Shown: positions 22,342 through 63,416 of the stretch, in pieces | Position numbering within the stretch: the stretch's first letter is position 1 | Layout: every line of letters starts with the position of its first letter | Source of the DNA: Neophaeotheca triangularis | Taxonomy: Eukaryota | Direction of reading: 5' to 3' | Assembly: GCA_054600435.1 (NCBI GenBank) | Contig: BAAIJX010000031.1 | Span: 1-64,000 of the forward strand | DNA length: 64,000 nucleotides | Notes under the pieces: model-generated | The model's database searches: none | The model's input: the letters and a program-made list of their open reading frames with translations, nothing else | What the model was told of the DNA's origin: nothing | Program-made: the position numbers and the translations under genes

Positions 22342-22861
22342 ATGTCGTTTGGGCCGGGGAAGGTGGATGAGGTGGACTGGAGAGGAGGGGGGGTTGTTAT
22401 GCTGGGCGGGTTCGGGCATTTGCTGCAGTGGGCCCGGACGTGCGCATCGTGGGTATGGGCATTTCTTTCCTTGCTGGAGAGAGGTAGATGTTGGCTTTGC
22501 TGTGATGGCGGGCGGCTGTAGAGCTAGATATGGTCAATGAGACAAGGCACATTGGACTGCTATACTCTCTTCCCGCACCTCGACCTCTACCTATTACTTC
22601 ACATGATGACTTCCATCTTGGCCGATAATCTGGTCTTTTTGCCGTACATGCCACCATGCTCGTTGAGTTATTGCCTTCGCTCGTCTATCCTGCATTCGAA
22701 TACTTAGGCAAACACTACCTAGCATCCCGATGATTTAACAAGCAAAAGGCCAAAACGAGAGTTCAGAACAAACGACAAACCGAACGGTCCAGTCGCTTGC
22801 TAAGCAGAAGCCCACCGCTCCTTCTCAGCCTCCATTACCTACCAAGACCAGCAAAAACAGC

Positions 22862-22867
22862 AAAAAA
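22862..22867 (-). terminator. RNA polymerase III oligo-T terminator of the tRNA-Trp gene
   Basis: T6 on the minus strand, 17 nt after the discriminator base, followed by a further T5. Confidence 0.7.
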
Positions 22868-22884
22868 GAGACAATTCATGGCAT

Positions 22885-23017
22885 TGAACCACACCCCTTT
22901 TCTGGCTGTTAGGAATTATTCGCTAACAAGGTTGCTTTGTATAGATCATGTACTAACGATTTGAACGGATAACCTTTCGATCTGGAGTCGAACGCGCTAC
23001 CGTTGCGCCAGCGGTCC
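22885..23017 (-). tRNA. tRNA-Trp(CCA), 72-nt mature body, split by a 61-nt intron in the T-stem; exon 1 23017-22958, exon 2 22896-22885
   Basis: GGACCGC TG GCGC AACGGTA GCGC G TTCGA CT-CCA-GA TCGAA AGGTT ATCCG TTCAAAT C|GGGT GTGGTTC A: D-arm and anticodon arm pair perfectly, A- and B-box are intact, and the T-stem and acceptor stem are completed only by exon 2. Confidence 0.88.
22897..22957 (-). other. Spliceosomal-type intron inside the tRNA-Trp gene
   Basis: 5' GTTAGT (22957), branch motif CCTAAC (22913-22908), 3' AAG (22899-22897); 61 nt, matching the size of mRNA introns in this window. Confidence 0.75.
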
Positions 23018-23296
23018 CGATGTTTATCCGACCGTTCAATTCAATATAGTGCCAGTTATTGCATTCACCGACGATCGTTATAGCGCGAATTCGAGATCGT
23101 CCAGGGGCAGTTTGTGAGAATCCTGCATACGTGTCCGTCAGTGAAAAGGGTGGTTTGGGCGATGGTATATAGACAGTAGTAATGGGGTGAGGGGGGCGAC
23201 GTGGCGCATGTGCTGATCGCTGTGCCCCTGACGGGAATCCGCAAGAACGCATTTGACAATACCCTCCTCGATCCTTTCCGCACGATTATTCGATCC

Positions 23297-23963
23297 CTAG
23301 TAGCCAAACTCCCAGATGTCCTTCTGATAGCCCTCAGTCAGCGCCTTGTCCTCGCCATACCTGCGGCAGAAGCAAACGTTAGTAATGACTCAAACTCATT
23401 CCTCTGCCCTTTCCTCTCCCAACTCCCGATCCCATCACCCAAAAGAAAAGAAAAGAAAAGGGGGGGAAAAAAGCAAACTCACTTCTCAACCCACTTAACA
23501 AACCCCCCATCGAGCAACCAAACCTTCTGCCCTTCCCCTCCTCCTCCTCCTTCCGACTGACCCTCCACCCTCTCCCGCTCCCTCAAATACCTCAGCGCCG
23601 AACTCGGCCCCCGCTGCTGACTCAACGAGCAATGGAAGACAACGTTCTCCTTGCCCTTGAGCGTCCGCACCAGCTCCGGCATGGCGTAGTCGTGAGTGTT
23701 GACGGGGTGGTTGCGGCAGTTGGTGATGTGGCCGCCTATGAACTGTTGCCGACGGGGGTTAGGAAGAAAGGGAAGCGAAGCCGGGGGGTCGTTTGAGATG
23801 TGCGCTGTGGGTATGGCTTGGAGTGGGCTGGACTGGCCAGGGGGAAACTCACGTCGTTGTCTCGGACGTCGATGACTTGTACGCTCTCCGGTTTGTTGTG
23901 GATTAGGGCTGCGAGGTCTTCGCGCGAGATGCGCGGGAGGTTGGAGATGTTGTAGGAGGACAT
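23297..23963 (-). CDS. Cdc25-like/Acr2-Ych1-Ibp1-type rhodanese-fold phosphatase or arsenate reductase; exons 23963-23853, 23742-23483, 23360-23297
   Basis: VIDVRDND|FIGGHI, active-site HCSLSQQRGP (HCX5R), LDGGFVKW..K|YGEDKALTEGY; two GTGAGT..CAG introns. Confidence 0.9.
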
Positions 23964-62572: not shown

Positions 62573-63416
62573 ATGCATTCCACCACTCTCTTCACCGCAG
62601 CCCTCTTCAGCGGCCTCGCCCTCGCAGCCCCAGCACCAGCCCCTAGACCCCAACTCAGCCAACGCGACAACCACACACCCGCCCCCAACGCCGACCTCCT
62701 CAACCAACTCCAACTGGCCCCAGTCGCCACCGACCGCATCGCCCTCCTAGCCGACTCGGACTTCAAATTCGACTTCCAATCGCCCCCCACGGGCGCCACC
62801 ACCTCGGGCAAAGGCGGCTCCACCGTCCGCGCCGACCGCGCAACTTTCCCCGCCTTGATCGGCACAGGTGTGGGCATGACGGTCGGCTTCATCGGGCCCT
62901 GCGGTTTCAACACGCCGCACACGCACCCCCGGTCCAGCGAAATCAACCTCATCGTGCAAGGCAAGCTGGCCACGGAGTTCCAGGCCGAGAACGGCGCGAG
63001 AGTGGTGACGGATGAGTTGAGCAAGTGCGTTCCTTCCCCTACTAGCATTCTTGCCAAGCCAGAAACAAAAAAAAAAAAGACAAAAAAAAAAAAAAGGGGG
63101 GGCTACTAACACGGTGAAAAAATCAAGGTTCCAAATGACAGTCTTCCCGCAAGGCGCGCTGCACACCGAGTTCAACCCGGACTGCGAGGACGCGGTTTTC
63201 GTGGCGGGTTTCGCTTCCGAGGATCCCGGTGTCTTGCAAGCTGCGCAGTCGCTTTTTGGCCTCGGGGAGGATGTCGTCAAGGCTGCGCTGGCGGTTGATG
63301 CTTTCAATGGCGCCGATCTTGACGAGTTTAGGCAGTTGATTCCCGCTAATGTTGCGTTGGGGGTTGAGCAGTGTTTGGCGAAGTGTGGTATTGCTAAGAG
63401 TTATCGGGGGGAGTAG
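62573..63416 (+). CDS. Secreted spherulin/germin-like cupin; exons 62573-63024, 63128-63416
   Basis: Signal peptide; germin boxes GFNTPHTHPRSSE and FPQGALHTEFN; intron GTGCGT(63025)..TACTAAC..AAG(63127) with poly-A tracts. Confidence 0.92.

Follow-up and report, generated by a model that had tools for sequence, protein, structure and literature searches.

A probable spliceosomal intron in the T stem of a Dothideomycete tRNA-Trp(CCA) gene and GT..AG inserts at nine other sites in related genes

The introns of eukaryotic nuclear tRNA genes canonically lie between positions 37 and 38 and are removed by the TSEN endonuclease and a ligase; we know of no measuring mode of the eukaryotic tRNA endonuclease for sites other than 37/38. 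Introns of mRNA type are known from the U6 genes of fission yeast and other fungi, from the U1, U2 and U5 genes of Rhodotorula hasegawae and from ascomycete rDNA (PMC5855946), and in the available text of that report tRNA is not on the roster of non-coding genes with spliceosomal introns. Excerpts of two further reports describe non-canonical and multiple tRNA introns of the bulge-helix-bulge type in archaea, Cyanidioschyzon and nucleomorphs (PMC3978253, PMC4033280), and excerpts of two others describe introner-like elements and the gain of new spliceosomal introns in Dothideomycetes (PMC4457414, PMC5647799). A 2025 paper, in the part available, places spliceosomal introns in Pol II transcripts and treats tRNA introns as an unrelated type (PMC12530127). 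A full-text literature search, with most subscription journals and supplements outside its reach, returned no report of spliceosomal introns in tRNA genes. Here we describe a tRNA-Trp(CCA) gene interrupted by an insert that is very probably of spliceosomal type.

The gene lies in a 64-kb window (the whole stretch of DNA analysed). An adjoining coatomer beta' gene is 86-89% identical to proteins of Baudoinia, Teratosphaeria, Acidomyces, Zymoseptoria and Dissoconium, genera which we take to belong to the Capnodiales and Mycosphaerellales group, and on the strength of these matches the window comes from a Dothideomycete. The first exon (22958..23017, minus strand, 60 nt, G1 to C61) takes in the acceptor strand GGACCGC and the D arm, an anticodon arm that bears CCA and lacks a 37/38 intron, the variable loop, ATCCG, TTCAAAT and C61. 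It is followed, between standard positions 61 and 62 and thus in the 3' strand of the T stem, by a 61-nt insert with the make-up of a U2 GT-AG spliceosomal intron (22897..22957, minus strand) and then by a 12-nt second exon (22885..22896, minus strand; GGGTGTGGTTCA) that supplies the T-stem bases G62-T65, GTGGTTC as the 3' strand of the acceptor stem, and the discriminator A. The initial annotation had proposed a tRNA-Trp(CCA) gene broken after C61 by a 61-nt GT..CTAAC..AG insert, with a second exon restoring both stems, and this anatomy was borne out throughout. Gene identity and break can be read in the sequence, the insert was found at 22957-22897 exactly as claimed, and once the 61 nt had been excised by script ARAGORN called a 72-nt tRNA-Trp(cca) with a full cloverleaf, including a T stem ATCCG/CGGGT and an acceptor stem of 7 bp, two of them G-U.

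The joined exons match uninterrupted genes in a set of metagenome loci described below. Exon 1 is identical to the first 60 nt of the intronless genes at two of these loci (L005 and L009), each of which carries an uninterrupted gene with 0 mismatches to the joined exons of the window gene, and at 37 of 106 metagenome occurrences an intronless gene has a 3' end identical to exon 2. The boundary of the insert can be drawn in two equivalent ways (shift 0 or +1), with GT..AG at shift 0 only. By our own arithmetic, a given 12-mer is expected within 150 nt about 9e-6 times by chance, and boundaries that the cloverleaf sets independently would show both GT and AG with a chance of 1 in 256 per placement. 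Like a canonical tRNA intron, then, the insert resides in a nuclear tRNA gene and must be removed before the tRNA can work, and its 61 nt compare with 7-66 nt for the canonical introns of the metagenome loci. It is unlike a canonical intron in its location at 61/62, in its GT..AG ends and branch motif and in having no bulge-helix-bulge.

The 5' splice site of the insert reads GTTAGT (22952..22957, minus strand) and is of the GTNNGT type with G at +5. The branch-site motif CTAAC (22908..22912, minus strand) has its putative branch A at 22909, which leaves 12 nt to the 3' splice site, an AG in the context AAG (22897..22898, minus strand). The initial annotation had likened the insert in size and signals to mRNA introns of the same window. 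Eighteen candidate mRNA introns of 41-110 nt (median 65.5 nt) with CTRAC-type motifs were recovered there by an ORF-continuity heuristic, and the insert's 61 nt and its signals fall inside their range, in agreement with that claim; the candidates were chosen partly by their signals, and the comparison is for that reason weak and not independent. The AAG acceptor is a rare form, seen in one of 14 tRNA inserts and one of the 18 candidate mRNA introns. An AAG acceptor had also been reported at 63127 in another gene of the window, and the corresponding candidate 103-nt mRNA intron was recovered at 63025-63127 on the plus strand, again by the ORF-continuity heuristic. As a separate observation, a hairpin is predicted (22908-22927, minus strand) in which the branch motif CTAAC is paired to an internal GTTAG of the insert; GTTAG is also part of the 5' splice site, and the branch site could therefore pair with either copy in such folding models.

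That standard tRNA finders would miss this gene had been anticipated, and this proved correct for the window gene and for insert-bearing relatives. With the window left intact, ARAGORN detected no tRNA under default settings or with its intron option on, and in the proposed check with and without 22897-22957 it called Trp-CCA only after removal of these bases. Relaxed thresholds with introns allowed gave 24 dubious calls, including a misfolded 'tRNA-Asn' over the locus, and these were disregarded. The Rfam model RF00005 matched only its positions 8-63 of 71 in the intact window (22954-23010, minus strand) at 30.6 bits, barely above the threshold of 29 bits, compared with 56.9 bits over positions 1-71 for the uninterrupted genes of L005 and L009. 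When ten insert-bearing loci were searched with Rfam, eight had no match and two a partial match only.

A search of public sequencing runs for the locus listed five, all of DNA and none of RNA, and four of them were compared with the window over 22500-23432. Contigs across the gene came from an air metagenome (run X2) and from another sample with the same organism label (run X3); a contig from run X5 covered 23023-23172 only, upstream of the gene, and run X4 yielded no aligned contig. A 7,530-nt X2 contig crosses the whole of 22500-23432 with a single gap, an inserted base at 23078, and the insert is therefore there at full length. This contig carries 14 substitutions, nine of them assigned to positions, so that it speaks for the presence of the insert and not for its identity. 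In X3 a single 240-nt contig over 22796-23036 spans gene and insert with one base fewer than the window. An assembly or sequencing artefact in which a tRNA fragment was joined to unrelated DNA is excluded by these independent X2 and X3 contigs, both of which cross the whole gene with its insert, and since the 12 nt next to the insert supply precisely the 3' end that the tRNA would otherwise lack, we give this explanation a negligible probability. The initial annotation had named lack of support for the insert in raw reads as grounds for abandoning its reading, and the two contigs provide independent support.

The differences between X3 and the window were confined to the insert. Over the 241 bases there were four substitutions and one missing base (22905, 22906 [deleted], 22910, 22918 and 22934), all inside the 61-nt insert, with GT, AG and the whole of GTTAGT unaltered, 0 changes in the 72 bases of both exons and none from 22796 to 22884, a stretch that covers the T6 run downstream of the gene. 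The branch motif is CTGAC in X3 (22910 T>C on the plus strand), which still fits YTRAY. The probability that five of five changes fall in 61 of 241 bases is about 0.001 by our own arithmetic, or 0.004 if the adjacent pair is counted as one event. The flanks of the compared samples differ from the window by about 1.5-6%. The insert is thus common to at least three sampled genomes, and no part of the locus changes faster than its interior. Over 22500-23432 X3 itself has two haplotypes of roughly the same depth, which are identical over 22796-23036 and disagree at about 5% of the positions in the flanks; this sample is diploid, hybrid or mixed.

To characterize related genes, metagenome data were scanned with a 22-base stretch from the anticodon-stem-to-T-loop region of the window tRNA, yielding 102 loci with 106 occurrences that were sorted by long-gap alignment without credit for splice signals, by ARAGORN and by a rule-based sort. 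The commonest class was that of intronless tRNA-Trp genes with the same mature sequence (54 of 106). Twenty occurrences had an anticodon-loop intron only, 16 by rule and four (L001, L008, L044 and L097) added from long-gap alignment and ARAGORN; three had an anticodon-loop intron with a poorly paired acceptor stem, seven were cut by contig ends and four were partial. The remaining 18 carried 47-55-nt GT..AG inserts at nine other non-canonical sites. Many of these 18 loci are duplicates from related samples, and they represent 13 distinct inserts, giving 14 distinct inserts at ten sites when the window is included: 10/11, 12/13, 13/14, 14/15, 18/19, 19/20, 25/26, 26/27, 61/62 and 64/65 in our own conversion to standard tRNA numbering. 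The flanks of the window were common to none of the 102 loci, which match it in the tRNA alone.

These inserts share the signals of the window insert. A GT plus AG placement was available in all 14, G occupied +5 in 13 of 14, and 14 of 14 contained YTRAY, the branch A lying 10-12 nt before the 3' end; the endings were CAG in seven, TAG in six and AAG in the window insert only. Exons had 0 mismatches to the window tRNA in 15 of the 18 loci, and the mismatches in L071 and L087 (two each) and L049 (three) alter both sides of a stem pair, save for one D-loop change in L049. Eleven of the 18 loci also keep an anticodon-loop intron of 13-25 nt, and L049 and the L057 group have two GT..AG inserts each. 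About ten genes for other tRNAs in the flanks of the loci were all intronless or had anticodon-loop introns, and a B-box scan revealed no further split genes; as the metagenome scan was anchored on the Trp T arm, it is uninformative on other tRNAs genome-wide. One flanking gene, at L019 1189-1307 and identical in L037, was labelled tRNA-Thr(tgt) with an odd intron by ARAGORN; judged by eye, the anticodon of this tRNA is AGC and its 46-nt intron an ordinary one of the anticodon loop.

Several incomplete tRNA-Trp copies were also observed. In L003 (1501-1878; same in L014 and L089) an inverted second tRNA-Trp copy lies about 330 nt from a complete gene that has a 14/15 insert and an anticodon-loop intron. 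The inverted copy keeps the GT..AG insert end and the anticodon-loop intron and is without the 3' acceptor strand, so that it looks like a partial duplicate postdating intron gain. The copies in L028, L047 and L084 have a 19-nt anticodon-loop intron, with the first three acceptor bases unpaired and four to five of seven acceptor pairs formed; damage at the 5' end, in a genome with numerous Trp genes, is the probable explanation for these copies.

The GT..AG inserts could in principle be non-canonical tRNA introns cut by the tRNA-splicing endonuclease and joined by ligase, with GT..AG and CTAAC coincidental; non-canonical tRNA introns cut at bulge-helix-bulge structures are known in some eukaryotes (PMC3978253, excerpt). 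In a strict test for this structure the window insert formed zero to one of four central pairs, a central helix together with an outer helix occurred in 0 of 14 inserts, and the bulge-helix-bulge reading was rejected for all 14. Coincidence cannot account for the presence of GT, AG and, 10-12 nt before the end, a branch motif in every one of the 14, and the window insert sits at 61/62, not at 37/38. An endonuclease-cut intron is accordingly highly improbable. The inserts do resemble the introns of archaea, Cyanidioschyzon and nucleomorphs in occupying the D arm, the T arm and other sites outside the anticodon loop, in numbering up to several per gene and in being missed by gene finders, whereas those introns, as described in the excerpts of PMC3978253 and PMC4033280, are marked out by an RNA structure at which the endonuclease cuts, and the tRNA-Trp inserts by linear spliceosomal signals without such structure. 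The 13 further GT..AG inserts at nine other tRNA-Trp sites and the failure of the bulge-helix-bulge test strengthen the spliceosomal-type reading of the initial annotation.

That reading gains further from the way in which inserts change, with splice signals kept and the intron interior diverging both in X3 and in two pairs of metagenome loci. Between L015 and L065, both with an insert at 13/14, the exons were identical at 72 of 72 positions, compared with 45/53 for the GT..AG insert, 10/15 for the anticodon-loop intron and 179/200 for the 5' flank, and GTACGT, ACTAAC and AG were preserved. Between L036 and L041, with inserts at 25/26, the exons were again identical (72/72), the insert matched at 50/53 and the signals were preserved. 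The flanks of L015 and L036 are homologous (z of 11 and 23 against shuffles), and their inserts lie at 13/14 and 25/26, respectively; homologous flanks with different insert sites indicate that the position of the insert has shifted within one gene lineage. Both inserts are exactly 53 nt long and their last 23 bases are alike by eye, and the same intron may have been relocated within the gene. When the 14 inserts were compared, those at different sites had no mutual similarity. A search for a second copy of the 61-nt insert found none in the 64-kb window and none among the 102 loci. Introner-like elements, which occur within one genome as many near-identical copies forming introns of unrelated genes, are known from the same fungal class, the Dothideomycetes; at the scale of window and loci the tRNA-Trp inserts give no sign of such repetition, second copies being absent there and inserts at different sites dissimilar.

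The A-box region of the window gene (TGGCGCAACGGTAG; 22997..23010, minus strand) is uninterrupted by reading. The B-box region (CGTTCAAATCG; 22957..22967, minus strand) was located by reading and by the equivalence of the two boundary placements, and its DNA is intact because the first base of the insert, a G, stands in for G62; both boxes are assigned by reading against the general consensus. A T6 run (22862..22867, minus strand), the likely Pol III terminator, lies 17 nt after the discriminator, with a T5 run (22853..22857, minus strand) beyond it, and TATATT at 23043..23048 (minus strand), 26-31 nt upstream of G1, may be a TATA-like upstream promoter element. One X3 haplotype has TATATAA at this site (changes at 23042 and 23043), and TATATA-like motifs are also found upstream of L015, L036 and L063. 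The intact B box and the T6 run had both been pointed out previously and are readily seen in the sequence, as are the flanking GAL7 and rhodanese genes. The former encodes galactose-1-phosphate uridylyltransferase on the plus strand; the latter, a rhodanese-domain gene, shares the minus strand with the tRNA-Trp gene and ends approximately 460 nt upstream of it. The start of the trailer directly after the discriminator is alike (ATGCC, ATACC, AAACC or ATCCC) before the T run in many tRNA-Trp genes from different contigs, including the window gene (22880-22884) and those of L003, L015, L036, L057, L087, L005 and L009, and constitutes a conserved trailer motif.

Spliceosomal splicing might act on a Pol II transcript, either a read-through from the rhodanese gene, downstream of which the tRNA-Trp gene lies on the same strand, or an independent non-coding RNA, with the tRNA then excised by RNase P and RNase Z. 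The spliceosome normally works on Pol II transcripts, as stated in the available part of PMC12530127, and at 11 of the 18 insert-bearing loci (L003, L014, L089, L015, L027, L065, L049, L057, L086, L094 and L063) the insert falls within the A box, an arrangement that should weaken Pol III initiation. The inserts also show no significant depletion of T runs, which would be expected if Pol III has to read through them (T4 or longer in 1 of 14 against 3.2 expected, T5 or longer in none against 0.9 expected). In the window, however, the gene keeps its A box, B box, TATA-like element (-31 to -26) and T6 run 17 nt downstream, T runs similarly follow the related tRNA-Trp genes, and fission-yeast U6 is a Pol III transcript that can be spliced, according to the available text of PMC5855946. 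A Pol II origin of the spliced precursor is therefore decidedly unlikely for the window gene, and its A-box-split relatives may be transcribed via the upstream element and the B box, or by Pol II.

The same promoter and terminator elements bear on a further alternative, that the window gene is an inactivated copy in which an intron or intron-like insertion entered one of several tRNA-Trp genes, the others supplying the cell, and that it is unused or weakly spliced and looks perfect because the event is young. Other Trp genes in the genome are possible, no class is commoner among the metagenome occurrences than intronless genes of identical mature sequence (54 of 106), the AAG acceptor is weak, and partial or poorly paired Trp copies do exist (minus-strand copies in L003 and L014, a plus-strand copy in L089, the second copy of L022, and L028, L047 and L084). 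The compared samples are moreover close relatives, for which finding none of the 72 exon bases changed has a probability of about 0.03-0.3 by our own arithmetic, a mild improbability only. Against inactivation, none of the five X3 differences touches the exons, GT or AG or breaks the branch consensus, the TATA-like element, both boxes and the terminator are all intact, and the architecture recurs at nine other sites with intact exons, the 72/72 identity within diverged pairs being hard to square with decay. On balance an inactivated copy, the chief alternative, is unlikely, although the window copy could be dispensable should the genome hold other uninterrupted Trp genes.

Taken together, the sequence comparisons suggest, as the reading we consider probable, that this is a working Dothideomycete nuclear tRNA-Trp(CCA) gene whose precursor would have to be spliced by the spliceosome. 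All steps beyond the DNA, that is transcription, the polymerase used, spliceosomal splicing and function of the product, we infer as follows. Transcription would be by Pol III most likely, from the A and B boxes together with the upstream TATA-like element, and would end at the T6 run. The spliceosome would recognise GTTAGT, CTAAC and AG, the 61 nt would leave as a lariat and C61 would be joined to G62. Formation of the T and acceptor stems, trimming of the ends and addition of CCA would all have to wait until splicing was complete. Points that weigh against this reading are the weak AAG acceptor, the pairing of the branch motif in the predicted fold of the precursor, the lack of significant T-run depletion, the split A boxes of many relatives and the placing of spliceosomal introns in Pol II transcripts by PMC12530127.

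The closest likeness is with the introns of fungal snRNA genes and rDNA as described in the available text of PMC5855946, which are likewise short GT..AG introns with a branch site in a gene for a structured, conserved non-coding RNA. With the U6 introns the likeness extends to a host transcribed by Pol III, as expected for the window gene, and with snRNA-gene introns generally to insertion sites that vary by lineage, which suggests repeated gains. The host here is a tRNA and not an snRNA, so that the resemblance to the U6 class is one of working and not of membership. U6, U2 and U5 lie close to the spliceosome's active site, the usual explanation for their introns being reverse splicing, and a tRNA does not; also unlike snRNA-gene introns, some of the related tRNA-Trp precursors carry an endonuclease-type intron as well.

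These data indicate that a type of tRNA intron absent from textbooks probably exists. A more far-reaching reading, which taken jointly in all its parts we hold only tentatively and at slightly less than even weight, is that Dothideomycetes and allied ascomycetes routinely use the spliceosome as an enzyme of tRNA maturation. On this joint reading tRNA-Trp would have been colonised repeatedly, at ten or more sites and with up to two inserts per gene, often beside an endonuclease-type intron so that one precursor would need two unrelated splicing machineries; in some genomes every Trp tRNA gene, and with it all reading of UGG, would depend on the spliceosome, and standard annotation would miss these genes. 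If the genes work, tRNA would be added to the non-coding RNA genes with spliceosomal introns, Pol III transcripts of a second class would be substrates of the spliceosome, certain precursors would require the tRNA endonuclease in addition to it, and tRNA gene counts would be too low in many fungal genomes. With many insertion sites in one 72-nt gene, tRNA-Trp provides a compact natural system for questions of intron origin, and the same system could address reverse splicing into abundant RNAs as a route of intron gain.
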